DNA of 64,000 bases, taken from positions 1 to 64,000 of IMG/VR virus record IMGVR_UViG_3300020576_004709. One strand, written 5' to 3'. Both the position numbers and the translations under genes were made by a program. This DNA comes from a virus (taxonomy: Duplodnaviria > Caudoviricetes). This document shows positions 8,643 to 64,000 of the stretch, piece after piece; position 1 is the stretch's first letter; each line of letters opens with the position of its first letter. The notes below the pieces were generated by a model. The model ran no database searches, was not told the DNA's origin, and worked only from the letters and a program-made list of their open reading frames with translations.

Positions 8643-8644
8643 GA

Positions 8645-15404: not shown

Positions 15405-15405
15405 G

Positions 15406-18194: not shown

Positions 18195-18268
18195 CGGGGC
18201 GTAGTTCTAATTGGCAGAACGCGAGATTTGGGATCTTGAGGTTGCCGGTTCGAATCCGGCCGCCCCGA
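18195..18268 (+). tRNA. tRNA-Pro(TGG)
   Basis: Cloverleaf: CGGGGCG/CGCCCCG acceptor, GTTC/GAAC D stem, CGAGA-TTTGGGA-TCTTG anticodon arm, GCCGG-TTCGAAT-CCGGC T arm, A73; CCA not encoded. Confidence 0.93.
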
Positions 18269-18270
18269 CT

Positions 18271-18347
18271 CTACCGGAGTCCGATATTGGTTTCGCGGAA
18301 CGCGACTGTGAATCGCGGCCTTGCGGGTTCGATTCCCGTCCGGTAGC
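18271..18347 (+). tRNA. tRNA-His(GTG), atypical
   Basis: CTACCGG/CCGGTAG acceptor, CGCGA-CTGTGAA-TCGCG anticodon arm, GCGGG-TTCGATT-CCCGT T arm, C73; A8 instead of U8, 12-nt D loop, no encoded G-1 or CCA. Confidence 0.8.
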
Positions 18348-18380
18348 CTCCGGCAATGACGCCGGGAAGGAGTTCAGCGA

Positions 18381-18982: not shown

Positions 18983-18983
18983 T

Positions 18984-19047
18984 TGGTTGGCCGAATGGTT
19001 AGGGTTCTCAGCCAAAAGAACGCCCTAGCCAAAAAACTTGCCAGCCA
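18984..19047 (+). ncRNA. Y RNA 3 (canonical Y-like fold)
   Basis: Terminal helix TGGTTGGC[C]GA/TTGCCAGCCA with bulged C, inner 9-bp stem TGGTTAGGG/CCCTAGCCA. Confidence 0.78.
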
Positions 19048-19054
19048 TTTTTCG

Positions 19055-19093
19055 GCCCGGTCGATCTCCTTGGAGGTCGGCCGGGCTTTTTTT
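19055..19093 (+). terminator. intrinsic terminator between the Y RNAs and Ro60
   Basis: GCCCGGTCGATCTCC-TT-GGAGGTCGGCCGGGC-TTTTTTT. Confidence 0.85.
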
Positions 19094-19117
19094 GTGCCCG
19101 TCACAGAGGGAACGTAC

Positions 19118-32941: not shown

Positions 32942-33258
32942 TTCAATTCCTTCGCGGCGAAGTTCCGGCAAAGTTCTTGAAGCTCCGGATGCTTGGGGTT
33001 GACCCAGCGGTCGTCCCCGACGTCGCAGACCTTGATCTTGTCAGCATACGCGGCCGGGATTTGCTTCGCAAACTTGCCTTCCATGACGACGACGACTTCC
33101 GCCCAGCGGCAAAGCGTGTCCATCAGTTCCGGGCCGGCCGTCGACCAGCCGATGCAGACCGCGTCGCGCTCGAATTCTTCCTTCAGAACCCAAGCCATCG
33201 CCGCGCTACGACTGTTCCCCCGCAGGCAGACCGCCAGAATCCGCTGCGGGGACATCAC
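32938..33258 (-). CDS. low-molecular-weight phosphatase/ArsC-fold protein
   Basis: ILAVCLRGNSRS (CX5RS P-loop), WAEVVVVME, D+G.D. Confidence 0.8.
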   Translation of the reverse strand: MMSPQRILAVCLRGNSRSAAMAWVLKEEFERDAVCIGWSTAGPELMDTLCRWAEVVVVMEGKFAKQIPAAYADKIKVCDVGDDRWVNPKHPELQELCRNFAAKELK

Positions 33259-35183
33259 TGTTTTTGGACGGGGTTCCCGTCTTCATCCTTTTTCCACGTC
33301 CCGATGGGGCATTCCTCGGCCGCCCAACTGGCCTTCTTCTGGACCGGACAGCCGCATTTGCCGCAGACATCGGCGAAGCGCTGCGGGCAGACCAGGCAAA
33401 GCTCGATCCGCCGATTGTATTCGCCCTCGGACGTCGGCGCGGCCCCGTTCGCCGCGTGCCGGACGACGGCCCGGAAGAAGCCCAACGCCTGGCGGGCGAT
33501 GTTCGGCGGCGCGGTCTTGTCCCGGTCGTCGCGGCTGATGACCGTCAGGCCGTTGTTGTTGCGGTCCCGGCGGATCATCGTCCATTCGGGATGTTCGACG
33601 AGCCAGCGGCGGATCGCCGGCATCACGCCGGGCTTGTCGCCGTACAGTTCCCCGAAAATCTCGGTGTCGTGGAAGACGATGTAGCGCGAGACCTTCGGCG
33701 CGTGCAGGCTCAGTTCCGCGTACACCCGCTCGGCCGTGTGCGGGTCGGTGTCGACGAGGAGCACGTCGCAATCCTCGGCCTCGCCCTTCGTCGTGTCGGC
33801 CGCCCGCATTTCGTACCGCGTGCCGGGCAAGTCGCGCGCGACGTACTTCGCGAGCTTCCGGGCCTTCGCCGTGTTGACGAGGTCGTAAGTCACCAGGCTC
33901 GCCGGCTTGCCCGCGAGCAGGGCCGTCGTGCTGACGCCGAATCGCGTGCCCAACTCGACGACGCGGGCCGTCGGTCCGACCGTCTCGACGAGCGCCCGCA
34001 GCGTGGGCAAATGCTCGTTGATGTCGGACGGCTCGGCGCAGACGCGGGCGAACTCGACTTCGAGCACGTCGCCCTCGGCGAGCGGGGCATCGGCGGCCTT
34101 CGCGTTCTCCGCGCACGGCGTGTTCGGTTGGCACGGCGTCTTGGCCGGTCCCGCGAATACCGGGAACGCGACCGGCGGCGGCTGGACGGCCGGCGCGTGC
34201 GGGTCGCCGCGGAGCGCGGCTTCGGTCCACGAAGCCGGCACGAGGCCCGTCCCGATGAAGTGTTCCCGCAAGCGAGTCGGATCGAGGCCGAGTTCCGCGT
34301 GCCCGAGTTCGTAGTTGCGGTACTTCTGCCAGAGCGTGATGGGGTACTGGACGCCGCCGGGCCGCGCGAAGCGGTGCGACCACAGCATTCCCGAGACGCA
34401 CCAGACCTTCCGCCCGGCCTTGCGAAACTTCTCGTGGATGTACCATTCCTCGCCGCCGAATCCCGTGAAGCTGGGGTTGAACCCCAGGAACGACGACTTG
34501 CGGCACGCGAAGAGGCCCATGCCCTGCGCCGGGATCTCGAACCACTTCGCGACGGGCTTCGGCAATTCCGGCTGGTGCTTCGGCACCTTGTAGACCTGTT
34601 GCGTCTCCGGGTGGATACGCTCCTCGAAGTCGGTCGACGTCTCCCAAAGCATCTTGGGGAAGGCGTTGAAATCCCGCTGCCACCGCCCCCACATTTGCGA
34701 CGGGCGGCGCTCGGTCCGCTTCTCCTTCGTGTTCGGGTCCGTGATCTCGACGTCGTCGATCGGCCAGACGTCTTCGAAGTGGGTCGCCAGTTCGACGAAG
34801 TTGTCCATCAGCAGCGGGCCGTGAACCAGATCCTCGCTCTTCGGGTTCGCGTGGTAGAACTCGGCCAGCGATTCGAGAGCGCCGGCCGCGAGCATGATAT
34901 GGGAGTCCATGCAGACGACGTGTTCGAACCGCGCCTGCTCGAAAACCTGCTGCTTGGCGAGCGCCGGCCCCTTCGGTTCGGGGAACCGGACGTACCGCAC
35001 GCCCGGGCACTGGTTGCAGAAGTCCCGCGTCGTGCGGCCTTGATCGGAATCGGGGTTGTTGTCGATGACGATAATCTCGGCAATCCGCCGGCTGAAATAC
35101 AGCCGCAGCGCCTGCAACGTCATCCAGACCCCGTTGAAGTCGTCGTAAACCGGCATACCGACGCTGAAACGCAAACCGGACAT
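33255..35183 (-). CDS. three-domain protein: GT-A glycosyltransferase + class I SAM methyltransferase + C-terminal Cys-rich (DUF6171-like) domain
   Basis: SVGMPVYDD, VCMDSH, GLFACRK, GFGGEE, WSHRF; VVELGTRFGVST, D.LLVDT.H...L..HAPKV..YIVFHDT; R..LCL.CP...C.KCGC...K..W..E.CP.G.W. Confidence 0.88.
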   Translation of the reverse strand: MSGLRFSVGMPVYDDFNGVWMTLQALRLYFSRRIAEIIVIDNNPDSDQGRTTRDFCNQCPGVRYVRFPEPKGPALAKQQVFEQARFEHVVCMDSHIMLAAGALESLAEFYHANPKSEDLVHGPLLMDNFVELATHFEDVWPIDDVEITDPNTKEKRTERRPSQMWGRWQRDFNAFPKMLWETSTDFEERIHPETQQVYKVPKHQPELPKPVAKWFEIPAQGMGLFACRKSSFLGFNPSFTGFGGEEWYIHEKFRKAGRKVWCVSGMLWSHRFARPGGVQYPITLWQKYRNYELGHAELGLDPTRLREHFIGTGLVPASWTEAALRGDPHAPAVQPPPVAFPVFAGPAKTPCQPNTPCAENAKAADAPLAEGDVLEVEFARVCAEPSDINEHLPTLRALVETVGPTARVVELGTRFGVSTTALLAGKPASLVTYDLVNTAKARKLAKYVARDLPGTRYEMRAADTTKGEAEDCDVLLVDTDPHTAERVYAELSLHAPKVSRYIVFHDTEIFGELYGDKPGVMPAIRRWLVEHPEWTMIRRDRNNNGLTVISRDDRDKTAPPNIARQALGFFRAVVRHAANGAAPTSEGEYNRRIELCLVCPQRFADVCGKCGCPVQKKASWAAEECPIGTWKKDEDGNPVQKQ

Positions 35184-35246
35184 GGGGCACTTCTCCATTG
35201 GTAAAACGGTCACAATTCACGGCGGATCTTCGCCGCCTCCGGGTTC

Positions 35247-50270: not shown

Positions 50271-51671
50271 TCAGTTCGCGCCCGCCGTCTGCTTGGCCAA
50301 CCGCGCCTCGCGCAGCCGCATCGCGTGCCGGCCCTGCGAGGTCTTGCTGAGGAGGTCGTCGGCCGTCATTTGGAACGGGAGATCCTCGTTGGTGGCGTTC
50401 AACTCGCCCGTCCCGTCGGCGTTGGTCTGGTTGGCCGGCGGCGCGGTCGGGAAGATGCGGTTGCCGAACCCACGATCGGGCAGGCTCATCACGAGCTTCT
50501 TGCCGTCCTCGAACTTCGCCGGGTCCGAGAGCATGTTTTCCCACGTCTCGCGGTGTTGGTTGCCGCCGATGCGGGCCTTGACCGCCGTCGAGTCGAGGAA
50601 CGTCCGCACGTTCGTCAGGTGCGCGGCCTTCGCGTCGCTGTCGGCCTTCTTCTTCTGGTCGGCGAGCATCGTGTCGAACCGGCTGATGATGCCGTTCTGC
50701 TTCCGCACCACGTTGACGAGCGCCTTCTGCCGCGTCGCGAGGTCGGTGAACGCCTTCACGCCGGCCGCCGGCATCCCGGCCATCGCGTTCGGGTCGACGT
50801 CCATGCCGTCCGGCGGGAGTTCGTCCATCATGTTGATGGGTTGGTCCGACGGCATGGCCGGCGCGCCCTCGGCCGGCGGTGGCGGCGCGTCGGTCGGGGC
50901 GGGACCGCCCCCCATGACGCCTTGCAGGATGGTCACGACCTGTTGCAGGGCCGCTTGAATCTTCGGGTCCATTTTCAAAATCTCCACGGGTACGCTGCCG
51001 TAGGCAGCTTGGTCAGAAAACGCACGCACCGGCCTCGGCGGCTTCGGTTGCCCCCGGACGCTCGGCGGTTCGCCGCCACACAGCGTAACGGCTCGCATGA
51101 TGATCCCCCACGCCTGGCCGTTCGGCCGGCGCGGGAACCCCGCCTTCGTCTCGATCTCTTCCCGGTAGGTATCCCAAAACTCCACCGATGCCTGGTCGAA
51201 CAGCAGGGTATCGAGGGCGATCGCCGTCGGGTGGTTCACGGCCAGCGTGACCCACATCCAAGCGCCGTCCCAACCGCAATCGACGACCCAACCGAGAACG
51301 AACCCGTTGTCGTGCTTGAGCGTGACGCGGGGAACGTGGTAGGGCGTCTCGCTGTTGATCGGCTGCGTGAACTGGTGGAAGTTCCGAACCATGTCCTCGC
51401 AGTCTTTCGCCGTCCACTCGCTCGTGCCGTCTTCGTTTGGCCCGCCGTTCCACGGTCCGGGGCAGAAGATCGCCCACTTCTCCACGAGGTAGACGGCGCG
51501 GTCGAGCGCCGGGTCGTCGCTGTCGTCGCCAAAAGTGTCGGTGAGCCGCGGGTTCGAGGAGTCCTTCCGCCGCACCGAATCGACGAGCCGGAGCGCGTCG
51601 AGATCCTCGGTTTTCAGCGGCCGGATCTGCGACGGCCGGCGGATTTTCAGGGTTTGAAGGGAGGCGACCAT
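50271..51671 (-). CDS. prohead protease/scaffold (Mu gpI-like)
   Basis: IF.PG.W...M..NF...V.L.H...G..LGWV...F..ASVEF...RAV.L.G..PP.V.G followed by a low-complexity scaffold part. Confidence 0.8.
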   Translation of the reverse strand: MVASLQTLKIRRPSQIRPLKTEDLDALRLVDSVRRKDSSNPRLTDTFGDDSDDPALDRAVYLVEKWAIFCPGPWNGGPNEDGTSEWTAKDCEDMVRNFHQFTQPINSETPYHVPRVTLKHDNGFVLGWVVDCGWDGAWMWVTLAVNHPTAIALDTLLFDQASVEFWDTYREEIETKAGFPRRPNGQAWGIIMRAVTLCGGEPPSVRGQPKPPRPVRAFSDQAAYGSVPVEILKMDPKIQAALQQVVTILQGVMGGGPAPTDAPPPPAEGAPAMPSDQPINMMDELPPDGMDVDPNAMAGMPAAGVKAFTDLATRQKALVNVVRKQNGIISRFDTMLADQKKKADSDAKAAHLTNVRTFLDSTAVKARIGGNQHRETWENMLSDPAKFEDGKKLVMSLPDRGFGNRIFPTAPPANQTNADGTGELNATNEDLPFQMTADDLLSKTSQGRHAMRLREARLAKQTAGAN

Positions 51672-51712
51672 GTTTTACTCTTGGAACTTAATCTAATTTG
51701 GGCAAGCCCGTC

Positions 51713-52615
51713 TCACCATGCAAGGGGAATCTCGCCCGTCCGTTGAAGTTCCCGCTTGCCGGGCGCGAGACGGTTCCAAATCAACTTGTGGATCGGCGTC
51801 CAGTTGCACCGGCAGTTGCACACGTCCTTCGCTTCGAGTCCCCGCACGACGACGAACGGCGTCGAGATCGGGTAGTACAGCCCGTCCTTCTCGCGGTGCC
51901 ACGGCCGGGTGCGCTCGTCGCGGATCGCGTGGTATTGCCACGCGGGGAACTCGGCCCGCATCCCGCTCGCGTTCAACTCGTCCTGCTGCCCACGGTTGAG
52001 CGCGTCCATGACGTTCGTGCGCACGACCATCTGCGAGTATTGCGAGTGCAGGGGCGAAATGCCCGCGTCCTTGAGGATGCCTTCGACCGTCAGCGTGGCA
52101 TCCTGGCCGCCGACCAGCTCGTTCGCGATGGCCTGCTGGATCTTCTTCGTGACGACGTCCTCCGTCGTGACCGCGACGTTGAACACTTCCCGCTGGATCC
52201 CCTGCGCGTAGTTGTTCGGGTTCTGCCCGACGCGCGGCACGAGCGAGGAGAAGTACCGGATGGCCGCGTGCGGTTTCAGCGGCCGCAACTCGGCGACCGC
52301 CTCGGCGAACTCCGGCAACGTCACGTTCCCGGTCGAACCGTAGAAGCGGGTTCGCCCGACGAGGTCGCTCGGCACGATGACGGCCTCGACGACTTCGTTG
52401 AGCGCCGCCCGATCCTTCGCGTCGAAGATCCAGCCGAGGTTCCGAAGCACCTGGCCGGACGCGACCCGCTTCTTCAAGGCGCCTTCGACGATCGTGCTCA
52501 GCGCGATCGACCCGAACGCGACTGCCTCGGCCAGCCAGTCGGCGATCGACCGGCCGCCGGGTCCGGGCACGGTCTCGGGGTTCGGCGCGTCGGGCGGTCC
52601 TGCGTACTCGTTCAC
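51713..52615 (-). CDS. head morphogenesis protein (SPP1 gp7/Mu gpF family)
   Basis: VVRTN...A.N.G...WQY.AI.D.RTRP.H...DG.YY...CNCRC; GTG start overlaps the giant ORF stop. Confidence 0.9.
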   Translation of the reverse strand: MNEYAGPPDAPNPETVPGPGGRSIADWLAEAVAFGSIALSTIVEGALKKRVASGQVLRNLGWIFDAKDRAALNEVVEAVIVPSDLVGRTRFYGSTGNVTLPEFAEAVAELRPLKPHAAIRYFSSLVPRVGQNPNNYAQGIQREVFNVAVTTEDVVTKKIQQAIANELVGGQDATLTVEGILKDAGISPLHSQYSQMVVRTNVMDALNRGQQDELNASGMRAEFPAWQYHAIRDERTRPWHREKDGLYYPISTPFVVVRGLEAKDVCNCRCNWTPIHKLIWNRLAPGKRELQRTGEIPLAW

Positions 52616-55600
52616 TTCGATTTCTCCGCTTCGGGGGTTCCTTCGGCCGGCTTCTTGTTCTCGCCCTTCAACTCCTCTTCGAGCTTCTTGAGGGCCTCCA
52701 TCTTCTGCTTCAACTCGGCGGCCTTCGGGAACTCCTTGCCGATGCCCGCCTTCGTCCGTGCGATGTCGGCCTTCGCGCGGGCGATGTCGTCCTTCGCGGC
52801 GTCCGCGCCCTTCTGCAAGTTCCGGGCGACGTACTCGATCGACTTCAACGACTCGCCGACACCGAACCGGCTGTCGTGGTGTTTCGATTCGAGGTAGAGC
52901 TTTTCGCCCCGCCGCATGAGTTGGAGTCCCTTGAACTGCCCGACCCGCACGCCGATCCCGTAGGGGTCCTGCACGTCCTTCAACGCCTGTTCGAGGGCCT
53001 TTTCCGCCTCGGGCCGATCGGCGTAGTCCTGGCCGTTCAGGTGGATCTTGAAATCGACGTGCTTCTCCATGTCCCCCGCGTCCTTCGCGAGGTTCTCGGC
53101 ATGGCGCTCGAGCATCGGCAAGTTCCGCTCGCCAGACGCGACCGCCGCCTTGAGCTTGTACTGTTCCGAATCGTGGCGCTTCCGACCCGCGTGCAGGTTC
53201 TTCAAGTCCTCGTCGAGCTGGACCTTTTGCAGGACGCGGGGGTCGCCCGACGCGGCGGCCATCAACTGCTCGGGGGTGAGCTGCGCCGCGTCCTCTTCGC
53301 CCACGGCCCGCTGCGTCGTCCCGCCCGGCGTCATGACCTGTTTCACGAACCGGAGCTTGTTGCCGATGATCTGCCAGAACGTCCGGTCGAGACTGCCTTC
53401 CGTGACGTAGCTGACGATCTTCACCTGCTGCTCGTGCGCGGCCTTCGAGGGGTCGTTCATGTTCCCCTGACGCCATGCCCGCCCGTTCCGCTGCTCGACG
53501 CTCGCCGGGGTCCACGGCACGTCCAAGTGGTGCAGCGCGTACAGCTTGTCCTGGACGTTGACCCCGGTGCCCATCTTCTTCGAACTGCCGATGGCGACGA
53601 GGATCTTGCCTTCCCGCATCGCCTGCATCGCGTTTTCCTTCTTCTCGCCGGCGAGCTTGGAGAAGTCCGCGATCTTCTCGCGCGGGATGCCGCCCTTGAC
53701 GAGCTTCTCGATGATGTCGCCGTAGAGGTTGAAGGAGTTCCCCGCGTTCACGTCCCCTTCCTCGCCCGGCTTGTCGTACACGTCGGCGAGGCCGAGGTTG
53801 TCGTCGTCCCCGCCCTTCTCGCCAATGTCGTTGACCCCGATGTCGGAGAAGATCATTTGCGTCCGGCCCGGATGTTCCTTGTTGATCTTCAAGACGTTGC
53901 GGACCGCGAGGTTCGTCTTGCTGTCCGGGTGGTCGACCGCGTTGGGATCGAGGAGCCGCATGTCGAGCGCCCCCTTCCGCCCGTCCGTGCAGATGACGAG
54001 CATGTTGTCCTTACCGCCCCGCTTCAAGTTCTGGGCGCGGGTTTGGAGGCTGTCCATCAGGCGGGCGATCTCCGGCGTCTTCGGCGCGGTCTCGTAGGAG
54101 TCCTCGCGCTTCGGCCGGATGAGGGACGCCGAGCCGTCGGGGTTCTTCATCGCGTCGGCCCGCTGGATGTCCAGCATTTGCCGGCTCATCTGCATGAGTT
54201 CCGGGATGTTGGTGAACTTCGCGAAGCGGGATACCGGCTTGTAGTCGCCGGCGACGGTGAACTCCATCTTCGTCTGCACGTCGCCGAAGGTGGACGCCCA
54301 CGCATCGAACGTGTGCAGCCCGCGTTCCTTCAACTCCTGCGGTTGGAGGTAGCGCTGCATGTTGTAGAGTTCGGCCATCGTGTTATCGACCGGGGTGCCC
54401 GTCGCGAACACGACCCCCCGGCCGCCGTTGTTCTCCATCAACCACTTCGTGCGCATGTACATGGCCGTGGCCTTCGCGCTGCGGCCGGTCGGAACCCCCT
54501 TCAAGCCCTGCTGCTTCGTGTAGCACGGCAGCGACTTGTAGTTGTGGGCCTCGTCCACGAAGATGTGGTCGATGCCGGTCTCTTCGAAGAACACGGCGTC
54601 GTCCTTGCGGCTCGGGTCGAGCGCCTCTTGGAGCTTGGCCTCGAGGTTCTTCTTGGCGTTCTCCAGCGACGTCTGTGCCCGGCTCTGTTTGCCCTTCGGC
54701 TCGTTCGCCATCATTTCGGACCGCACGGCTTCGAGTTCCTTCAACTCGTCGCGAATGTGTTCGGCGACGGTCTCCGGCTTCATTTGGAGCATGTCGAGGT
54801 TGTCGTGCGTCATGATGACCATGTCGTAATCGCCGGTCGCGATTTGGCTGATCGTCTTCTTCCGGTTCGCCTTGTCGAAGTTGTCCACGGTCGAGAGGAT
54901 CTTGGCCCCCGGATACAGGTGTTGCAACTCGCGCGTCACCTGCTCGATGTTCGCCTTGAGGCACGCGATGGCCGGCTTCTTCGCGAGGCCGAGCCTGCGG
55001 AGTTCCATCGCGGCCGCACCCATCGTATAAGTTTTCCCGGTCCCGACTTCGTGGCCGAGTAGCCCCTTGCCCGTCGTCACGACTTGCCACACCGCGTTCG
55101 CCTGGTGGTCGCGCAGCTTCACGCCGGGGTTCATGCCGGGGAATTGCAGGTGTTGGCCGTTGTACTTCATCGGCACGACGTTGTTGAAGTTGTCGTTGTA
55201 GTGCCGGTGCAGTCGGTCCCGGCGCTCGTCGTCGGTCCACAGCCATTCCTTGAACTTGTCCTTGATCTCCTGAATCTTGGCGTTCGCGTTGTCGGTCTCT
55301 TCCCGGTTCACGACGGTCGATCCGTCCGAAATCTTGTCGGTGACGCGCACGCTCGTGTTGTTCAGCGCGGCCTCGAACAGTTCGTCGAACGACTTGCGGG
55401 GCGTGGCCCAAACCTCCGTCGCGGTCTTGGTGTTGGCGACGTACCGCTTGCCCTCGTTCGAGTAGTTCGCGATCCACGCGCCGGAGTGCGGCAAGTAGCT
55501 GATCTTGAAGTGGTGGTTCTGGCCGCCGAGCAACGACGCGGCGAACTCCGAGACGTCGGACGACGGCACCCACGGCACGCCGAGCTTGGCTTCGATGTCC

Positions 55601-58600
55601 TCGTGCGACACGTCCTCGGGCTGAACCTTTTCGAGCGCCGCCACGTTCGCGGCGAACTTCGGGTCGGTCTCGGCCGCCGCCCGCGCCATGGCCAGCTTCC
55701 GCCGGACGTTCCCCGAAAGGTACTGGTCGGCGGGTTGCCACCCGGCCGACGGGTCGGAGTAGGCGAGGCCGGCATCGACCAAATGCTTTTCGACCGCCTC
55801 GCGCGGCAGCGACGTCAGCGCCGCGATCCGGTCCACGTCCACGCCGCCGGATTCGTGGAGCACGACGCCGAGCGCCTCGGACGGGTCGTTCGCCTTCTCC
55901 ACCTTCGACACGGCCTTGATCGTGTCCTTGTGGAAGATGTCGGCCTTCTCGAACTTGCCCGTCTTCGGGTTGGCCTTCTCCATCGCCAGCAGGATCGGCG
56001 AATCGGGGTCGGTTCGGAACGCCGCCTTGTTGCCCTTCGCGTTGAGCGGTCCGTGTTCCTTGACGAATTGATCGTAGACCGCGTTCAGCATGGCCCGCGC
56101 GGCGGTCGCGTCGCCGCCCGCGATCTGCGTGTTGAGCACGTCCCGCATCGCGTCCCGCACGGTCATGTGGGCCTGGATCTTCGCCGCGACCGCCGGCTTC
56201 ACGTCGGCCTGCTCAACCATCTGGTCGCCCTGGCGGATGTAGACCTTCCCGCCGTCCACCTTGAACCCGCCCGCGCGAACCTCGCCCGGTGCCGGGGTTG
56301 CCGCCGGTCCCGCGTACCGCTCCTTCGGCGCGGTCGCCGCCGAGTAGAGGCCCTTCGGCAGACGGTCGATCGCCGCGGCGAGCCGCTGTTCGTAGTCGGC
56401 CGTTCGCGTGACGTTGACGCTGTTGCCCTGGTACATGGAACCGGTTCGGTCCACCGTGCCGAGCACCTGGCCGGGATTCTCCGCGAAGTAGCGGTTGATC
56501 GGGATGGCCTCGCCGCCGGCCGGGTCGGGAACGGTCGTCGTCTCCATCCAGTTCGTCGCGGACGGCGGTTCGCCCGGCAACCGCTTCCGCAGGATGAGCA
56601 TGTCGGTCACGACGTCGGTGCCGGCGTTCGACTTGTGGGCACCGGACGGGAAGCGGATCGCCGAGACGAGGTCGCACGTCTTGCCGAGTTGCTGGCGGAT
56701 GGACGGGTCCATCTTGTCCAGCGTGCCAGTGCTCGTGATGTGCATCACGAGGCCGCCGGGCCGCACGAGGTCGGCCGATTTGAGGAAGAAATAATCGTGG
56801 ATGTTCGCGCCGTGCTTGTTGTACTTCGGGTCGTGGACGCGGTAGTCGCCAAACGGCACGTTGGAAGCCACGAGATCGTAGAAGCCCTCGGGTGATTGGA
56901 GCTTCTCGAACCCGTGGACCTTCACGTTCGCGTTCGGGTAGAGGTGGCCGAGCATCCCGCCGGTCGTCGGGTCGAGTTCGACGGCGGTCGTCTTCGTGTT
57001 GCCCGCGATGTGCGACGGCATCATGCCGAGGTAGTACCCGATCCCGGCCGACGTTTCGAGAAATCGCCCGCCCTTGAAGCCGAGGCGGTCGGCCATCTTC
57101 CAGTGGGCGTCGACCACTTCCGGGGCGGTGTAGTGCGCGTTGAGCTTCGAGGCGCTCGCCGCGTCGTACTCTTCCGGGGTGAGGAGTCCTTCGAGGATCT
57201 CTCGTTCCTTGCGCCACTCGTTGCCGTACCGGTTGAACAGGCCGGGGAACTGCCCCCACCCGACGTACCGCGACATGACTTGCTGCTCTTCCGGGGTCGC
57301 GGTGGTGCGGCCCTCGGCCTTGATCGCTTGAAGGGTCTTGATCGCCGCGACGTTGGCCGCGAACTTCGTCCGCGCGCCGCCCGTCGCGAAGTCCTTCGAC
57401 GTGTACTGGAAATTGCCGGTGCCCGCGTCCGTCGGGTTCTCCGGCGTCGAGGGCTTGGCTACCGACTGTTCAGCGGGAGATTGAGCAACAACTTCCGGGT
57501 TGACTCCATCTGGTCGGACATCCCGGCTTCCACTTCCCACGCCTCGGGCCGGGCGACTTCGTCCGGCGGGGTCGGCAGAAATTGACTCAGGACGAACTCT
57601 CTCGCCGCCGACGGGTCGTTGCCCGCCGTCTCCATCCGGTCCAGCAGGTCCATCGCTTCCCAAGTCTGCGACTGTAGGTACGGCTCGAAGTCGCCCGACG
57701 TCTGCATTTCCGCCGCCAGTTCCGGGAAGTTCCGCAGCAGGTGCGCCCGGAGCATCTGTTCCCACTGGTTGCCCGGCTGGTAGCCCTGGTTCGCCGCGTC
57801 GCGGGCCTTCGTTTTCCAGTTGGTTTCGCTGCTCATCGGATGCCGCCGGGGTTTGAGGTTCTGACCCTATGCTATTCGTAATACCCTGCCCATCGAGTAG
57901 TTCGCCCATCTTCGGGGAATCTTTGACCTTCCGCGCGGTCGGTACCTTCTCGCCCTTGCCCGCGATCGGCTGGCCGGACGCCTGATCTACTTCCTGAACT
58001 TCGTTCCCGTTCACGCGGTACGGCTTGCCGTCCACCGTCCAGAGGTTGCCCCGCGACTTCTTGATCTTCGCCCCATCGATCGGGATGCGCTTGTTCTTCA
58101 TCCACGCGCCGAGGACGTGCGCGTCGCTCATGTTCGACGTGGGCAAGTGCGGGTTCTCGCCCGCGTGCGCGTTCGCGTAGCCGTGCTTGAACGCCTCGCT
58201 CGGGTTCGTCGGGGCGGCCGTCAGCCCGTGATCCTCGTCGCCCGCGTAGCCCGCGGCGAAACTACCATCCGCGTCCTGCTTCACCTGGAACTTGCCGGAG
58301 TTGTCCCCCATCTGCGGCTTCGTCTCGCCCGGCTTCGGCATCGCGGATTCCATGCCGCCGTGCAGTTCGAGGGCCTTCTCCCGCGTGATCGGCTTCCACT
58401 TCACCGCGAGGGTCTTTTGGACCGGCGCGGCCTGGCCCGCCGGAACGCCCGCCGTCGCCGGCGGCTCCGCTGGCTTCGCGCCGCCCGGCGCGGCCTCGCG
58501 CCCGCCCGCGCCGCCGGCCGGCTTGCCGTCCTTGTCGAACTTCAACGAGCCGAGCGTCACTTGGCCCGGACCGGCGGCCGCATTAACTCCCAACGACTGA

Positions 58601-61600
58601 CCATCAACTCCCAACGAAGCGGGCTTTTCTGTCGTCGGCTGCGCGTCGGCTGATTCCTTTGCGACCGGGTAGCCGTCTGCGGCCTTGCCAACGCGGTACC
58701 ATTCGCCGTCCATCTTGAACCGGCTGCCCGCCGCGCGCTGCTCGATATTCAATCCGTGCTCGGCGGCGAACTCCTCGGCTTTCTGGTGGTCGAGTTCCCG
58801 GTGCGCGTCGTCGAGGCTGAGTTGCTGGCCGGCCTTCGGCGAGGCGGCCGGGAGTTTGATGAGGTCGCCGAGGAGGTTGCGCGTCATGCCGGGCGGCGTC
58901 GGCTTGTCGCCCGCGTCCGGTGCCGGCGGGATGGCCTCGCCGGGGTTCGGGTCTTTTCGTGCCGGGGAAACCGATGCGGGTTGATCGTCGGCGGATTGGC
59001 CTCGGGCCTTCGCGTACTCGGCCCGCTGCTTGTCGCTGAGGGAGTTCCACGGAGTCTTGGCGAGGGTCTCGGCATACTCGTCGTCGTGGCCCGCGTTGGT
59101 CCAGTGCTCCAAGCGATCCTCGTGCGCGTCGGCCTGGTAGTCGTCGGAGGTGAGGTTCTTCTTGCCGAACGCTTCGTCGTTGAGATCGGGCGCGGCGGGC
59201 TTTGGCTGCTCGGCCGGCTTCGCGAGGAAGTCGCCGAGGATGTCGTCCTGCTGCTTCGATGCCGGTTTGGATTCGGGCTTTGCAATCTCGGCATCGAGCA
59301 AGTCGTTCGGAGCGTGCGGCGACGCGCTCAGACCTGGGGCTTGATTTGGGCCTGCTGGCTGAGGAGTTCCCGCGTCCCCCGTTCCGCCCGCTGCTTTTGC
59401 TCCGGCGTCATCGCCCACGGCCGGGGCACCGGCGGGGGTTGTGAGGGGGCGGCCGAGTTCGGCGTCGATGGCGGCGTTGATGCCGGCAAGGGACTGCTGC
59501 TTGACATGATCCTTCTCCGTTTGCGACTTCGCCGTCGCGAGCTGGATGGCGGCCACCTTGACCGCCTGGGAAATCGGGCCGCTGCGGTTCTGCAAGCGGT
59601 TGAACACTTCGAGGCGGTACGCGGAGTCCTGCTTCCGCTTCTGGTTCTCGTCGATCGCCAGCACGTTGCCGGCACCGGCCACCCGCCCCGCGCGGGCCTC
59701 GCTGGACACCGCCGCGTAGTCGCCGACCGCCTGGGAGAGCTTTCGCCCGGCGAACGACTGGATTTCAACCTCCTGGTCGAACGTGTTCTTCTCGTTCTCG
59801 AAATCGCCGAAGAGGTTCGTTTCCTTCTCGGTGTAGCTTCCCGCGTCGGCCATCTTCCGCGCGGCGGTCTCGATCTCGGAACGGTTCCATTCCCGTTCGC
59901 CGTTCTCGGCCCGGCGCTCGAGCTTCTGGAACAACTGCTCTTGCCTCGCGTGGTCGGGGAGATTCTTCGCCACCGCGACGGCGGTTGCCTCGTCGAGTTG
60001 GCCGTTCGTGAGCCGCTGGAACGACCGCTCGTTCAGGTTCGCGAGCGCGACCGCGTCTTGGGCCATCTTGCCCGAAACGCTCAGGCCGGCGTTGCGCAGG
60101 TGCTCGATGCCCTCGCCGGTGTCGCGCAGGTACTTCGCCGCGTCGATGGCCGTGCCACGCCCCTCGGCGATGTTGGCCAGCGCGCCGCGGCTGCGGGCTT
60201 CGACCGCGTCCTTCGCGTCGATGTACCGGACGTTCATCGTGTCCTGGCCGGTCCGCTCGGCGAGGCCGTGCCGGTTGTGGCCGTTGACGACCACGTCTTG
60301 ACCGCTCGCGGGATCCCGCCACGCGAGGATCGCCCCGCCGAGTTCCGGGTTCCACTTCGCGGCGCCTTTGAGTTCGCTGCCGATCCCGCCCTCGTCGACG
60401 TCCATCACCTTGTACTGGAACCGCTTCGGGTCGCGTACCAAACTCGACGTCGGCACGGTGTAGACGTCCGACGGCGACGGTACCGACGGCGTACCGTTCG
60501 GTCGCTTGGCCACTTCGCCGGACTGGACGGCGGCAACCGGTCGATCGACCGACGCGCCGGCGGCCTTCGTCTCGGGTCGCAACCACTGCTGCATGGTCGA
60601 TTCGGTCGCGCCGGCGGTCGCGTCCTTGCGGTACGGCTCGACTTCGTCGCCCTTCAAGAGCTTGTCCGACTGCTCGGTCCCGTAGGCCGCGCGCGGGCTG
60701 GCCCCGTGCATTCCGCCCGTCATGCCCTTGATGACCGCGTCGGCCATCTGGTGCCGGCTCATGCCGAACGTGTTGCCCCATTGGGTGTGCTTCTCGACCA
60801 TGTCGGCGAGTTCGCCCCTCGGGATCTTGTGGAGGTTCTCTTGGAGATCCTTGACGTGCTCGCCGGTGAACTGGCCCTGTCCGTGCGCGGCGGCCGCGCG
60901 CTGCACCGCTTCCTGGTGCGGCGAGAACTGCGGCCCCTTGTCCTTGCCCGCGTGCGGGTCGGGGATGTAGCCGGCCTGGATGAGCGCGTGCGTCTGTAGC
61001 GATTGCACCATCGCGTCCCGCCGGCGGCCGTTGGTGAACCGCGTCGCGAGGCGGTCGCGCACCCGCTTCAACTCGTTCACGTTCAGCGCGTCGAGATGGC
61101 CCGCCAACTGGCGGAACGTCTTCGGAGAAGCCTTGTCGTTCATCACGTCGCCGGCCAGCTTGATCGCGTCGGCCTTCGACGCCTGGGTCTTGTCGTATTT
61201 CTGCTTCGACTCGGTCGCCGCCTGCGCGTAGTGCTGTTCGCCGCCCTGCTGCGCGTGGAGCGCGGCCTTCGCCTTCGGGCCGTACAGCGTCTTGCCCGCG
61301 TGGTCGCCCATCCCGACCGCCTTCACGTTGCCGGTCGAAGTCTGCTGCGCCATCCACATGAACGCGCGGGGCTGCTGCCCCGCCTGCATCGCGTCCATCG
61401 AATCGCCGGCCGAGTTGTCCCCGCTGAGCATGTCCTGCAAAACGTCGATCGCGTGCCCGAAACCGTGCTGGTGCCCCTCCATCTGGGCGCGTAGCCGCAG
61501 GTTCATGATCGCGAGCAGGATCGCCCGCGACATTTCGGGGTTGCCGTTAACCTGGCGTTCGCCCGGTGCCGGATCGGTGTCGACTTCGGTGCCCTCGCCC

Positions 61601-63120
61601 GACGCGCCTTCGAGGTCGGTATCGTCCTCGTCCTCGACGTCCTCGTGACCGCCGAACGCCGTGACGCCCTTGACCGGCTGGCCGTCCTTGCCGGGGATGC
61701 CGGCCTTCGGATCGAAATCCGGCTTGCCGCCGCCGGCGGGCGGTGCGGTCGGAGCGCCCGGCACCGGAGCGCCGCCCATGCCACCCATTCCGCCCATGCC
61801 CGGAAACCCGCCGACCGACATGCCGGACATGGCCGCGTTCTGGCCGACGAGTTTGTCGGCCGCGTTCTTCGGCGATTCGAGGCCGAGCGTCTGTTGCACC
61901 TGCGCGAGGGACAGGCCGTGCATTCCGAGGAGGTCTTGGCCGAGCTTGAGCACGTTGCCCCGCTTCAAGCGCTGGTCGGGCGACATGCCGCCGAGGAGCA
62001 CGCGGGGAAGCCCGATGTCCCGGTCGGTGTAGTTGAGCTTCATCAACGGCTTGACGATCTGGTAGCGGATGACGTTACACACTTCCATCGCGAGCATCCA
62101 TTCGCCGAGTTCCGTGACGCCCCGCGCGACGGTCGAATCGCCGATGTCCGATCCGCTCTGCCCTTCGAGGAACGGCAGGTAGGCCCACCGCGTCGCCGTG
62201 TAGACTTCCTTCCGCCAGTCGTCGAGGGCCGACTGAAACGTCTCGCTCGTCCCGGTCGCGAAGTCGAGAACTTCAATCGAATCTTCCGGGGCGCAGTTGA
62301 TGTAACCCATCGACCGGGCGCGTTCGAGGAGATCGGCCGCGACGAGCCTGGCTTCCGGGTCGCTGAACTTGCCGACCAAGAACGGCCCGGTGAAGTTCTG
62401 GATCATGATGAGCCGGAGCTTCGTCGTGCTCTCGATCATCGTCGCCGCCCGCAACGCGCCGCGGAACATGCTGCGGCCATACGGGTTCTTGAAGAGCGAT
62501 TGGTAGCTGAAGAGCGTGAACTTGCCGGGGTCGAACAGGATGCCGGAGTTTGCCCGGTTCGCGCGGATGCCCACGACGTTTCGGAATGCGTCGATGTCCA
62601 TGTTGACGTAGTTGACGTCGATGGGATCGAGCGCCGCGAGACAGAGGTATTTCCGCCACGAACCCATTTCCGGATAGTCAAGCACGATTTCGTTGAGGCC
62701 GTAGCCGTCGATGAGCGCACCGGTCGCGATGTTCTTGATGACCGCGTGCCAACCGCCGTTCGCGCATTCGTCGATCGCCGCCTTCGCGTACTCCGCGGCC
62801 TCCTTGTTCTTCGGGTGCCGGTCGTCATACGGCAACACCTGCGGCTCGTAGGAACAGATCCGGGCAATCATCGAGTCGAACGCCGAAATCACCGTCGGCT
62901 CGCGAAGCATCAGTTCCCGGTACTTCTGGCGCTTCTCCGGCGTTTCGAGCGTGAGGTTCTCGAAGCTGTTCGGGTTCGTGAAGAACGACCGCATCCACTC
63001 CGTTCGGAACTGCCGGCGCTGGAACTCGGTCACGTCCGGCATGACCAGTTGCCGGCCGCTCGGCCCGGTGCCGTACTGGTTGAGCTTGTCGTTGGAGTTC
63101 GCGTACAGCGTCGAGAACAT
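52612..63120 (-). CDS. 3502-aa fusion: DUF935 (Mu gp29-type) portal + ParB-like domain + N6-adenine methyltransferase + SNF2 helicase (DarB-like polyvalent protein)
   Basis: Portal: ALIDGYG..EI, NPYG..M.R.A, NF..PF.VGK, G.......E.....A; ParB-like: RDPKRFQYK...W....G.I.AW...VVNGH.R; MTase: FLETSAG.G, DLV.SNVPFG, LV.AIR.PSGA; helicase: HEVGTGKT, VDEAHNYK, ATGTPV.N, W.P....QR.GR..RQGN. Confidence 0.9.
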   Translation of the reverse strand: MFSTLYANSNDKLNQYGTGPSGRQLVMPDVTEFQRRQFRTEWMRSFFTNPNSFENLTLETPEKRQKYRELMLREPTVISAFDSMIARICSYEPQVLPYDDRHPKNKEAAEYAKAAIDECANGGWHAVIKNIATGALIDGYGLNEIVLDYPEMGSWRKYLCLAALDPIDVNYVNMDIDAFRNVVGIRANRANSGILFDPGKFTLFSYQSLFKNPYGRSMFRGALRAATMIESTTKLRLIMIQNFTGPFLVGKFSDPEARLVAADLLERARSMGYINCAPEDSIEVLDFATGTSETFQSALDDWRKEVYTATRWAYLPFLEGQSGSDIGDSTVARGVTELGEWMLAMEVCNVIRYQIVKPLMKLNYTDRDIGLPRVLLGGMSPDQRLKRGNVLKLGQDLLGMHGLSLAQVQQTLGLESPKNAADKLVGQNAAMSGMSVGGFPGMGGMGGMGGAPVPGAPTAPPAGGGKPDFDPKAGIPGKDGQPVKGVTAFGGHEDVEDEDDTDLEGASGEGTEVDTDPAPGERQVNGNPEMSRAILLAIMNLRLRAQMEGHQHGFGHAIDVLQDMLSGDNSAGDSMDAMQAGQQPRAFMWMAQQTSTGNVKAVGMGDHAGKTLYGPKAKAALHAQQGGEQHYAQAATESKQKYDKTQASKADAIKLAGDVMNDKASPKTFRQLAGHLDALNVNELKRVRDRLATRFTNGRRRDAMVQSLQTHALIQAGYIPDPHAGKDKGPQFSPHQEAVQRAAAAHGQGQFTGEHVKDLQENLHKIPRGELADMVEKHTQWGNTFGMSRHQMADAVIKGMTGGMHGASPRAAYGTEQSDKLLKGDEVEPYRKDATAGATESTMQQWLRPETKAAGASVDRPVAAVQSGEVAKRPNGTPSVPSPSDVYTVPTSSLVRDPKRFQYKVMDVDEGGIGSELKGAAKWNPELGGAILAWRDPASGQDVVVNGHNRHGLAERTGQDTMNVRYIDAKDAVEARSRGALANIAEGRGTAIDAAKYLRDTGEGIEHLRNAGLSVSGKMAQDAVALANLNERSFQRLTNGQLDEATAVAVAKNLPDHARQEQLFQKLERRAENGEREWNRSEIETAARKMADAGSYTEKETNLFGDFENEKNTFDQEVEIQSFAGRKLSQAVGDYAAVSSEARAGRVAGAGNVLAIDENQKRKQDSAYRLEVFNRLQNRSGPISQAVKVAAIQLATAKSQTEKDHVKQQSLAGINAAIDAELGRPLTTPAGAPAVGDDAGAKAAGGTGDAGTPQPAGPNQAPGLSASPHAPNDLLDAEIAKPESKPASKQQDDILGDFLAKPAEQPKPAAPDLNDEAFGKKNLTSDDYQADAHEDRLEHWTNAGHDDEYAETLAKTPWNSLSDKQRAEYAKARGQSADDQPASVSPARKDPNPGEAIPPAPDAGDKPTPPGMTRNLLGDLIKLPAASPKAGQQLSLDDAHRELDHQKAEEFAAEHGLNIEQRAAGSRFKMDGEWYRVGKAADGYPVAKESADAQPTTEKPASLGVDGQSLGVNAAAGPGQVTLGSLKFDKDGKPAGGAGGREAAPGGAKPAEPPATAGVPAGQAAPVQKTLAVKWKPITREKALELHGGMESAMPKPGETKPQMGDNSGKFQVKQDADGSFAAGYAGDEDHGLTAAPTNPSEAFKHGYANAHAGENPHLPTSNMSDAHVLGAWMKNKRIPIDGAKIKKSRGNLWTVDGKPYRVNGNEVQEVDQASGQPIAGKGEKVPTARKVKDSPKMGELLDGQGITNSIGSEPQTPAASDEQRNQLENEGPRRGEPGLPAGQPVGTDAPGAPAAELPGTGGGNADVGRLRAVPTVADLGSDGPAGPDGDGGQRPVGGERVRPESISADPAGRSRPARGVGSGSRDVRPDGVNPEVVAQSPAEQSVAKPSTPENPTDAGTGNFQYTSKDFATGGARTKFAANVAAIKTLQAIKAEGRTTATPEEQQVMSRYVGWGQFPGLFNRYGNEWRKEREILEGLLTPEEYDAASASKLNAHYTAPEVVDAHWKMADRLGFKGGRFLETSAGIGYYLGMMPSHIAGNTKTTAVELDPTTGGMLGHLYPNANVKVHGFEKLQSPEGFYDLVASNVPFGDYRVHDPKYNKHGANIHDYFFLKSADLVRPGGLVMHITSTGTLDKMDPSIRQQLGKTCDLVSAIRFPSGAHKSNAGTDVVTDMLILRKRLPGEPPSATNWMETTTVPDPAGGEAIPINRYFAENPGQVLGTVDRTGSMYQGNSVNVTRTADYEQRLAAAIDRLPKGLYSAATAPKERYAGPAATPAPGEVRAGGFKVDGGKVYIRQGDQMVEQADVKPAVAAKIQAHMTVRDAMRDVLNTQIAGGDATAARAMLNAVYDQFVKEHGPLNAKGNKAAFRTDPDSPILLAMEKANPKTGKFEKADIFHKDTIKAVSKVEKANDPSEALGVVLHESGGVDVDRIAALTSLPREAVEKHLVDAGLAYSDPSAGWQPADQYLSGNVRRKLAMARAAAETDPKFAANVAALEKVQPEDVSHEDIEAKLGVPWVPSSDVSEFAASLLGGQNHHFKISYLPHSGAWIANYSNEGKRYVANTKTATEVWATPRKSFDELFEAALNNTSVRVTDKISDGSTVVNREETDNANAKIQEIKDKFKEWLWTDDERRDRLHRHYNDNFNNVVPMKYNGQHLQFPGMNPGVKLRDHQANAVWQVVTTGKGLLGHEVGTGKTYTMGAAAMELRRLGLAKKPAIACLKANIEQVTRELQHLYPGAKILSTVDNFDKANRKKTISQIATGDYDMVIMTHDNLDMLQMKPETVAEHIRDELKELEAVRSEMMANEPKGKQSRAQTSLENAKKNLEAKLQEALDPSRKDDAVFFEETGIDHIFVDEAHNYKSLPCYTKQQGLKGVPTGRSAKATAMYMRTKWLMENNGGRGVVFATGTPVDNTMAELYNMQRYLQPQELKERGLHTFDAWASTFGDVQTKMEFTVAGDYKPVSRFAKFTNIPELMQMSRQMLDIQRADAMKNPDGSASLIRPKREDSYETAPKTPEIARLMDSLQTRAQNLKRGGKDNMLVICTDGRKGALDMRLLDPNAVDHPDSKTNLAVRNVLKINKEHPGRTQMIFSDIGVNDIGEKGGDDDNLGLADVYDKPGEEGDVNAGNSFNLYGDIIEKLVKGGIPREKIADFSKLAGEKKENAMQAMREGKILVAIGSSKKMGTGVNVQDKLYALHHLDVPWTPASVEQRNGRAWRQGNMNDPSKAAHEQQVKIVSYVTEGSLDRTFWQIIGNKLRFVKQVMTPGGTTQRAVGEEDAAQLTPEQLMAAASGDPRVLQKVQLDEDLKNLHAGRKRHDSEQYKLKAAVASGERNLPMLERHAENLAKDAGDMEKHVDFKIHLNGQDYADRPEAEKALEQALKDVQDPYGIGVRVGQFKGLQLMRRGEKLYLESKHHDSRFGVGESLKSIEYVARNLQKGADAAKDDIARAKADIARTKAGIGKEFPKAAELKQKMEALKKLEEELKGENKKPAEGTPEAEKSK
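57459..57836 (-). CDS. nested gene (TnpV-like, 125 aa) in a different frame of the giant ORF
   Basis: MSSETNWKTKARD...W..M.RAHL..NFPEL.AEM..SG...YL...W.A.DL; GC-rich third positions are in this frame rather than the host frame. Confidence 0.7.
   Translation of the reverse strand: MSSETNWKTKARDAANQGYQPGNQWEQMLRAHLLRNFPELAAEMQTSGDFEPYLQSQTWEAMDLLDRMETAGNDPSAAREFVLSQFLPTPPDEVARPEAWEVEAGMSDQMESTRKLLLNLPLNSR
59328..59411 (-). CDS. possible nested micro-ORF (27 aa) in the giant ORF
   Basis: MTPEQKQRAERGTRELLSQQAQIKPQV*, nearly all codons end in G/C. Confidence 0.4.
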   Translation of the reverse strand: MTPEQKQRAERGTRELLSQQAQIKPQV

Positions 63121-63207
63121 GGGGGTTGCCGCCGGTGAGGTCGTTGAGCCGTCTTGGGTTCGATCTTATGCGATGCCGCGAGGAAATGAAACGCCGTCGC
63201 CCGACCG

Positions 63208-63305
63208 CGAAGGTTGGTTGAAATTTGGTTCGCATTTGGTTCGCGTTTGGTTCGTTTTCGAGAAACGAGCGCATTTCGAGCGATTTCCGAGCGCAATTCG
63301 AGCGC
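63208..63305. repeat. second TGGTTCG repeat array plus CGAGCG repeats upstream of the portal
   Basis: CGAAGGTTGGTTGAAATTTGGTTCGCATTTGGTTCGCGTTTGGTTCG, then CGAGCG x4 at about 11-bp spacing. Confidence 0.8.
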
Positions 63306-63423
63306 CGCCCGGTCGAAATCGGGCGCGCACCACCGGCATTATCCTCCAACACTGCTAACCGCAGGGAAGACAAGGGAATTAGAGTGCTGCGCCAACGTGG
63401 CCGAAACCACACCAAACGAGCGA

Positions 63424-63661
63424 ACTTCGGAACCGGCAGTTGCGTCCTGTGACGGACTGAGTGTTGGAGTCCCCGTTGACAGCCATTGGTCAGAGCGGGG
63501 TTTATTGCAACTGCGATCGGCCCTCCCGAAGTCCTTCACTTCCCCTGCGGTGCCCGGTGGTGAGGCACCGCCCTCGACGGGGAACTCTCGCGGGTACGCT
63601 ATGCCCCGCGCCGGCCGGCCGATAGGTAAGAACGCCGCGCGAACGGGCGAAAGCCCCGTTC
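63424..63661 (+). ncRNA. putative structured non-coding RNA (unclassified)
   Basis: Nested stems ACTTCGG/CCGAAGT and GCAGTTGC/GCAACTGC, internal hairpins, TTCCCC/GGGGAA with CGGTGCC/GGCACCG, and a GAAA-tetraloop hairpin. Confidence 0.4.
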
Positions 63662-63887
63662 TGAAGAACCATGCCGCGCTGAGGACGGCTATTCGGCTGT
63701 TGCTTTTTATCGACCGCTTTGGTGGAAAGTGACCGAAATGCGTTGAAGTGGCCTATTCGGAATCGTATTATTCCGACGTCGACCGCTGCATTTCAATCGA
63801 GCCGCTCGAAGCTATCAACTTCGGCGGCTTTTTCATTTCCTTCGCCTCATCGGTTCTAGGCCACCCCCGGCCGCGCGTCCAAGAAAA

Positions 63888-63923
63888 AATCCGCTTGACG
63901 TTCCGGGGAACATCAAGCGGATT
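63888..63923. promoter_or_regulatory. long palindrome (operator candidate)
   Basis: AATCCGCTTGA-C-GTTCC-GG-GGAAC-A-TCAAGCGGATT. Confidence 0.55.
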
Positions 63924-64000
63924 GCTTAACAAGCCAAATCTGTCAAGTAATCTCAGGCTTTCGGCCGGCCCGACAACCGCGAAAGTTCCTGGTTGATGAA

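Follow-up and report, generated by a model that had tools for sequence, protein, structure and literature searches.

A 3,502-codon Mu-type portal fusion with a DarB-like methylase-helicase block: a probable portal-anchored polyvalent protein of a caudoviricete

In a stretch of 64,000 nucleotides from an uncultured virus of the class Caudoviricetes (IMG/VR record IMGVR_UViG_3300020576_004709, positions 1–64,000; here called the window), one giant open reading frame (ORF), P0001, encodes a Mu-type portal domain that is continued in frame by a flexible linker, a conserved adaptor, a ParB-like domain, a low-complexity spacer and a DarB-like methylase-helicase block. As the portal is joined to effectors within the head module, the gene is read as encoding a portal-anchored polyvalent protein, and the reading as a whole, from loading of the cargo into the head by fusion to its later release with the DNA, is given a probability of about 0.6. 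To our knowledge, the loading of large anti-defense enzymes into phage heads is understood for very few systems, such as the Dar system of P1, the capsid-targeting sequences of T4 and the virion RNA polymerase of N4. The record comprises 73,818 bp with a direct terminal repeat of 77 bp and has a completeness rating of 100%, the window being its first 64 kb. An earlier note on this DNA had described one uninterrupted ORF of 3,502 aa with DUF935 portal motifs in its first ~430 residues, followed by a ParB-like domain, an N6-adenine methyltransferase (MTase) and a SNF2 helicase. The ORF was confirmed with its ATG start and without internal stop, the portal was located at residues 67–413, and each of the three further domains lies close to where it had been placed (Table 1).

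The portal domain matches PF06074 (Portal_Mu, formerly DUF935) with an E-value of 2.6e-23 and 83.3 bits versus a cut-off of 23.9, spanning profile positions 4–335 of 336, and a profile of the domain also matches solved portal chains. In the search of the complete 73.8-kb genome this family gave one match only, with 88.9 bits, while PF04860, PF05133 and PF05136 were without match in the whole genome and no other large ORF is portal-like; judged by these profiles, the giant ORF encodes the only portal of the genome. Along the minus strand the genes for the small and large terminase subunits (TerS and TerL), a C5 methylase, several small genes and an RNase T-type exonuclease gene are followed by a hairpin, a promoter-like site and the giant ORF, after which the genes for a MuF-like protein, a 466-aa and a 263-aa protein, the major capsid protein (MCP) and a neck/tail-completion protein are found. 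The giant ORF is positioned between terminase and MuF/capsid genes and therefore occupies precisely the place expected of a portal gene.

The fusion is genuine and conserved, and not an assembly artifact. The concern that a portal gene and a DarB-like gene were joined by an assembly or sequencing error hiding a stop or frameshift at 61.3–61.8 kb is understandable, as the junction consists of GC-rich low-complexity repeats, where short-read assemblies can err, and the contig cover of run X4 is interrupted at 61577–61770. However, Logan contigs of three sequencing runs each cover 51500–63900 in one piece with 0–1 differences; the support is at the level of contigs rather than raw reads, and since the runs belong to one study, possibly the source of the record, the three identical assemblies count as one line of support. 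A variant of ~94.5% identity from a groundwater run of a different study carries in-ORF indels of 3, 6, 12 and 21 nt as well as a compensated +1/-1 pair three bases apart, and its linker differs by a 3-nt deletion and a 12-nt insertion, both in frame, while indels that are not multiples of three (4, 1, 5, and 1 nt) are confined to the DNA ahead of the start codon, as would be expected if the coding frame stops where the ORF does. The missed stop for which the earlier note had proposed a check was thus looked for in contigs and the frame is open in both the Logan contigs and the 94.5% variant. The same fusion, which the note had proposed to seek in relatives, is present in P0002 (3,568 aa; another SRA run; 84% identical DNA) with a syntenic head module and in P0006 (3,512 aa), where portal and DarB block are 44% and 58% identical and the single ORF directly follows the terminase genes. 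With the frame open in relatives at 94.5%, 84% and ~44% amino-acid identity, an artifact is scarcely credible.

The coding signal extends over the entire ORF. The G+C content at third codon positions (GC3) is 0.88 and typical of the surrounding genes. In a codon-wise comparison with the 84%-identical relative L003, the ratio of nonsynonymous to synonymous substitution rates (dN/dS) is 0.11–0.32 in 11 of 12 segments, the exception being residues 1771–1900 with 0.64, and dS is ~0.55 in most segments. Even the Gly/Pro/Met linker has a dN/dS of 0.30, which together with its 3- and 12-nt indels speaks against a hidden frame break. By this codon comparison the whole length is under purifying selection, with dN/dS <1 in every segment. 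A programmed frameshift at the junction was considered as well and rejected: the sole slippery-like heptamer, GGGTTTC at codon 438, is out of canonical phase and not flagged in L003, and the off-frame stops after the portal are unconserved, that of the -1 frame being codon 524 in the window versus 1123 in L003.

The C-terminal part of P0001, assigned to the PHROG family phrog_10089 (DarB-like antirestriction), contains an N6-adenine MTase and a superfamily 2 (SF2)/SNF2 helicase. The MTase region, which is also matched by PHROG DNA-methyltransferase families, shows ETSAGIGYY as motif I (residue 2024) and SNVPFG as motif IV (residue 2087; 56851–56862), and the helicase shows GTGKT (2693), DEAH (2856) and QRNGR (3210). 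All of these catalytic motifs of MTase and helicase are intact and recur in P0002 and P0006, and on this basis the cargo enzymes look active. In a tblastn search the block matches P1 darB in three pieces with an E-value of 2e-23 and 25.5% identity over 46% of its length, and it is 35–37% identical over 82–91% of its 1,721 aa to the DarB-like virion proteins of Pavtok, VvAW1 and Bcep22-like phages. The cargo (residues 431–3502) contains only 4 Cys in 3,070 residues versus 5 in the 430-residue portal, with none at residues 401–2100, a scarcity that may be a weak hint of a protein that must unfold and travel.

The segments between portal and DarB-like block were assigned mainly by composition, alignment and structure prediction. 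The linker begins with GMGGMGGMGG-type repeats (61700–61790, minus strand; residues ~444–473). This repeat is length-polymorphic and hard to assemble, because indels of 3 and 12 nt separate the variants at this site, where the cover of run X4 also breaks. The adaptor carries the motif GN-VKAVG-x-G-D/E-H-x-G-x-TLYG at residue 597, and its AlphaFold2 (AF2) model (residues 517–876) is mostly helical with a predicted local distance difference test score (pLDDT) of 62.6. A SAP-like helix-extended-helix stretch within it is a candidate only, according to our own reading of the alignment. The following domain contains VVVNGHNRH at residue 947 and thereby the invariant N-G-H-x-R motif, in line with the Gly-x-x-Arg-type nucleotide-binding loop conserved in the ParB N-terminal fold, and its AF2 model, built from an 11-sequence alignment, reaches a pLDDT of 79.7. 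Its best matches in a Foldseek search of the PDB are Noc, ParB and KorB (E-values 2e-6 to 3e-4, probability 1.0), sulfiredoxin being weaker; therefore, the term ParB-like is a tested statement. Pfam ParBc itself gave no match to this segment. Within the PHROG "portal protein" profile phrog_21 the block is equivalent to the C-terminal end, and in at least 9 other representatives it is joined to portals. Giant proteins other than portals, from Prochlorococcus podophages and Ruegeria phage 45A6, contain it as well. In the spacer, polar and small residues make up 66–79% of 100-residue windows over residues 1201–1800, and a conserved island is shared with P0006 at 67% identity. At E<=1, linker, ParB-like segment and spacer were all without a Pfam name, the scanned slice 1268–1900 gave no match, and searching the PDB directly with the sequences of the ParB-like and MTase segments yielded nothing usable.

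An exhaustive HMMER search with residues 1–450 against 1.84 billion representatives identified 766 relatives of the portal. Among the best 150 of these the portal domain is always N-terminal, with a total length ranging from 351 to 4,399 aa. An extension of at least 150 residues past the portal is present in 117 of 152 representative relatives and 35 appear as free portals, counts that are rough since some short relatives may be ORFs cut at contig ends. In many relatives, including some of the free portals, a Gly/Pro-rich tail directly follows the portal, and 44 of the 117 extensions have more than 30% Gly and Pro together in their first 120 residues. The extensions contain ADP-ribosyltransferases (ART), 2H/Acb1-like phosphoesterases, InPase, NUDIX, LPD1 and peptidase C39 domains, in a clade relative a Kinase-PolyVal domain, and in two relatives of 4,128 and 4,399 aa MuF together with a zeta-toxin-like domain and an Sbno-type helicase. 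MuF is part of the portal polypeptide in P0008, P0013 and 26 other relatives. In P0009 (1,142 aa) of a neighboring clade, the portal is followed by a pretoxin-HINT (PT-HINT) and a DddA-like double-stranded-DNA deaminase toxin domain; its nearest neighbor on the portal tree is P0010 (834 aa).

The portal-domain tree places P0001 in a well-supported clade of six together with P0002, P0004, P0005, P0006, and P0007. All six members possess a complete, uninterrupted fusion gene of 1,856–3,568 aa downstream of TerS/TerL, followed by a MuF-type gene or one of similar size at the same position in the five contigs that extend downstream, and the four contigs reaching that far contain the complete module with a gene of ~254–263 aa and an MCP-sized gene (360–365 aa). 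The adaptor aligns in all six, its motif being found in 6 of the 152 relatives; the strict pattern GG-V/I-KAVG-x-G-E/D-H-x-G followed by TLYG is present in four clade members and variants of it in the other two. The cargo, in contrast, varies: the DarB block occurs in two non-sister lineages, and the others carry a polyvalent-type kinase, a ParB-containing tail or an uncharacterized tail. Portal, linker and adaptor being constant and the cargo different, the carrier is fixed and the distal part is a swappable slot. A word-based search of limited sensitivity for the cargo without a portal (residues 520–870 against proteins of 1,926–6,129 aa) returned P0001 and P0002 only, pattern scans derived from the six-member portal alignment found no relatives in isolate genomes, metagenome-assembled genomes or IMG/VR, and tblastn of the portal against GenBank phages gave two weak Bacillus phage matches only.

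Since the fusion is genuine, provides the only portal and is under purifying selection, covalent loading is the natural reading. In solved portals the C-terminus builds a crown turned to the capsid interior, the P1 portal being an example (PMC12810830), and T4 portals with a bulky C-terminal green fluorescent protein (GFP) still assemble, with GFP inside the head (PMC3012670). The C-terminal ~3,070 residues of P0001 would accordingly be placed hanging from the portal crown and facing the capsid interior, and, the portal ring being built into every procapsid, every head would receive cargo inside its shell. Up to 12 chains, i.e., ~4 MDa of cargo, would be situated beside the channel through which DNA enters and exits. 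According to our own partial-specific-volume estimate, 12 x 335 kDa take approximately the space of a few kb of packed DNA, so that capacity would be no obstacle. Such an arrangement would be the covalent counterpart of two non-covalent routes, the portal-binding one of MuF/SPP1 gp7 and the wall-binding one of P1 DarA/Hdf. The linker/adaptor region would then be cut, and the freed cargo would leave with the DNA and blunt restriction as P1 DarB does. The steps of this reading differ in strength: encapsidation of the cargo by fusion is very probable, its release by a cut and co-ejection with the DNA has about even odds, and an action specifically against type I restriction-modification is doubtful. 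The proposal of the earlier note that the fusion loads cargo thus holds insofar as the fusion is genuine, conserved, selected and the only portal; its view of a distinct packaging strategy does not, as portal-effector fusions have been described before (Iyer et al., 2017; PMC5512222) and 117 of 152 relatives carry C-terminal cargo. The fixed number of chains and the injection that it assumed are likewise not supported as stated, the former becoming a conditional 12 per head, and for the latter no protease or cleavage site is identifiable.

Several observations weigh against the reading of portal-anchored cargo. The portal fusion is known from sequence alone in this phage and close relatives, and a covalently bound chain cannot leave with the DNA without first being cleaved. 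For a prohead protease, the families PF10123, PF04586, PF00574, and PF01343 gave no match anywhere in the genome, and no peptidase or HINT domain is detected in P0001 by Pfam; the only protease lead is the language-model similarity of the 466-aa neighbor, for which an atlas cluster bearing PF10123 scores 0.95 by feature similarity. In Mu the portal, gpH, is shortened in the course of head maturation, which is background here and not counted as evidence. The adaptor has no Foldseek match in the PDB at E<=0.001. Moreover, the identity to P1 DarB is low (25.5% over 46% of the block), and among 27 ORFs searched through Pfam or PHROG (20 of them through Pfam) no DarA/Hdf-type partner was recognized, no dedicated DarA/Hdf profile search being included, so that the transfer of a mechanism from P1 is by analogy only.

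One alternative is that the cargo is never released and that 12 chains remain tethered at the crown, acting inside the head or at the channel, where they might methylate or coat the DNA during packaging or exit or might hold the last-packaged end through the SAP-like and ParB-like modules. Such a role would agree with the absence of a detected protease or self-cleaving module, with linker, adaptor and spacer being under purifying selection and hence not disposable, with the DNA-binding-type modules (ParB/Srx fold, SAP-like stretch) lying closest to the portal, and with the finding that P1 Dar protects whatever DNA the head contains (PMC12810830). Nevertheless, tethering is unlikely, as the characterized proteins of the DarB-like and polyvalent types are believed to work inside the cell following co-ejection (PMC5512222; PMC12810830), the ART, Acb1-like 2H, kinase and PT-HINT plus deaminase domains on related portals are sensible only inside a host, the PT-HINT of P0009 implies release in at least one lineage, and helicase and methylase would need ATP and S-adenosylmethionine inside a packed capsid. 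A stricter version, distinctly less probable again, is obligatory stoichiometric loading in a groundwater/soil phage lineage, with ~385-kDa subunits and 12 unreleased methylase-helicase arrays working at the channel mouth. If true, P0001 would be no injected effector but a machine coupled to the portal that modifies DNA within the capsid, and the adaptor motif GG-V/I-KAVG-x-GEH would be a docking or gating element.

Heads could also consist mostly of free portal subunits with few cargo-bearing ones, as a result of partial linker proteolysis prior to assembly, premature termination or recoding. A homododecamer of 4.6 MDa is expensive to make, the long, disordered linker is accessible, and SPP1 gp7 is present at only 1–2 copies per capsid (PMC5576092), all of which would fit mixed rings. 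However, the zero frame is the fused frame and the long product is thus the default, a canonically phased slippery heptamer is lacking, window and L003 differ in their off-frame stops, and all six clade members are uninterrupted fusions. Mixed heads are regarded as improbable. Among the possible fates of the cargo, portal-anchored loading followed by release remains the favored reading.

Table 1. Modules of P0001 and features of the surrounding head region (window positions unless marked as genome positions).
Feature	Position	Strand	Residues	Remarks
Whole portal-cargo ORF P0001	52612..63120	-		3,502 codons, ATG start, zero internal stops
Mu-type portal domain	61831..63120	-	1-430	Pfam match at residues 67-413 = 61882-62922
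Gly/Pro/Met-rich flexible linker	61543..61830	-	431-526	Assigned by composition
Conserved helical adaptor	60511..61542	-	527-870	Motif at residue 597; candidate SAP-like stretch
ParB/Srx-fold + helical domain	59455..60489	-	878-1222	
Low-complexity spacer	57811..59454	-	1223-1770	~550 residues; small conserved islands, e.g., 1325-1400
DarB-like block	52648..57810	-	1771-3491	phrog_10089, E 0
N6-adenine MTase core	56725-57075	-		Motif I at residue 2024, motif IV at residue 2087
SF2/SNF2 helicase	53464-55122	-	2667-3219	Pfam SNF2-rel_dom, Helicase_C, ResIII
Small terminase	69446-70183 (genome)	-		
Large terminase	67909-69606 (genome)	-		
Terminator-like hairpin, then promoter-like site	63923-63888, then 63796-63767	-		Upstream of the giant ORF
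MuF-like head protein, 300 aa	51713..52615	-		Homologue in relatives = PF04233 Phage_Mu_F
466-aa head-module protein	50271..51671	-		Possible Mu gpI-like protease/scaffold (weak lead)
Major capsid protein, 365 aa	48211..49308	-		phrog_29, E 6e-8; weak Phage_cap_E match

The immediate neighborhood of the giant ORF contains several further features. The strong terminator-like hairpin and the promoter-like site, both identified solely by a consensus scan, suggest that a transcription unit starts with the giant gene. They lie in a region of 830 bp (63121–63952) that is flanked by the RNase T-type exonuclease gene and the giant ORF, has a lower G+C content (~0.60) and is without a convincing ORF, and at the place matching this gap an RNase H/RVT_3 gene is found in L003 (L003:9102–9818). 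Downstream, the GTG start of the MuF-like gene overlaps the TGA of the giant ORF (GTGA) with a GGAG 8 nt upstream, and the two genes are translationally coupled. In relatives a small gene of the BubE family (PF20137) is located between portal fusion and MuF (L003:20700–21050 and L008:12585–13022), which the window does not possess. The syntenic MCP homologue in L009 matches PF03864.

Besides the DarB-like block, the genome encodes further modification enzymes, namely a D12-class N6-adenine DNA methylase, a C5 cytosine methylase and a glycosyltransferase-methyltransferase fusion (modification-enzyme loci at 3547–5199 and 33255–35213 of the window and at 66087–67841 of the genome, corresponding to L002:3087–4841; all on the minus strand), and judged by its predicted gene content the phage invests strongly in the modification of DNA or surfaces. 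Elsewhere in the window, 5621–8664 and 14157–16395 (both minus strand) encode a DUF5131 protein, a HerA/FtsK-like ATPase and a RecT/YqaJ recombination pair. An orthologue of Ro60 (TROVE and Ro60 vWA domains, 576 aa; 18983–20713, plus strand) is located just downstream of two adjacent tRNA genes for Pro-TGG (18195–18269) and His-GTG (18272–18348; both plus strand), and no Y RNA family reaches the Rfam gathering score, although a divergent Y-like RNA may lie nearby.

P1 DarB, a protein of ~2,255 aa with a loading system of Hdf, DarA, DdrA, DdrB and Ulx, combines an N6-MTase with an SF2 helicase as does the cargo of P0001, to which it is similar in sequence. It is located inside the head and co-ejected with the DNA, and DarA/Hdf on the inner capsid wall recruit ~45 free copies of it per head (PMC12810830), whereas the cargo of P0001 would be covalently attached to the portal in at most 12 copies. 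The best cargo homologues in cultured phages are JC1 gp69 (4,515 aa), Erwinia phage Pavtok gp27 (5,007 aa) and proteins of Vibrio phage VvAW1, BcepIL02, DC1, and BcepMigl, with JC1 gp69 being virion-associated by mass spectrometry (PMC9144972). These DarB-like proteins of Bcep22-like and related phages often bear a lytic transglycosylase; each has a gene of its own that closes the virion module at a great distance from the portal gene, and they differ from P0001 in not being fused to a head-assembly protein. The polymorphic MuF toxins and SPP1 gp7 (Jamet et al., 2017; PMC5576092) share with P0001 a swappable C-terminal effector on a constant, head-anchoring N-terminus, their genes being located beside the portal gene. 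However, their MuF anchor binds the portal non-covalently with 1–2 copies per capsid, while the anchor of P0001 is the portal subunit itself; MuF gave no match in the P0001 polypeptide and is the separate next gene. Concerning a "portal and MuF-like fusion protein" of actinobacteriophages, only protease-MuF fusions were found in the literature.

If portal-anchored loading applies, the portal ring may tolerate ~330 kDa on each crown, and the fusion would limit the cargo to 12 copies per head and fix its site at the DNA exit. The scaffold of portal, linker and adaptor with swapped enzymes would offer a testable model for protein encapsidation and ejection and possibly a design for loading engineered cargo into phage heads, and the cargo catalogue of the portal clade may be a source of candidate anti-defense enzymes.

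The closest described class are the polyvalent proteins defined by Iyer, Burroughs, Anand, de Souza and Aravind (Iyer et al., 2017; PMC5512222), who read PBECR, 2H and InPase domains on portals, e.g., BcepF1.124 with portal and InPase, as injected cargo. Similar to this class, P0001 unites several conflict-type enzyme domains in one head-module polypeptide attached to a head-assembly domain; with ParB/Srx, MTase and helicase on one chain it falls within the definition, and the same role would be assigned to it, i.e., encapsidation and subsequent delivery with the DNA. The portals related to P0001 carry domains of that list as well, including 2H, InPase, ART, Kinase-PolyVal, and LPD1. The portal fusions of Iyer et al. 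(2017) are, however, the "simplest architectures" with a single small effector, whereas P0001 carries ~3,070 residues with a DarB-type methylase-helicase and belongs to a whole clade with giant fused portals only and MuF as a separate downstream gene. In the literature and in GenBank phages we found neither a DarB-class methylase-helicase on a portal, nor portal fusions of 3,500 aa (relatives reaching 4,400 aa), nor a clade possessing its portal only as a giant fusion with conserved adaptor and swapped cargo. The principle of portal-fused cargo was already known, and P0001 is a very large example of it rather than a new kind of system.

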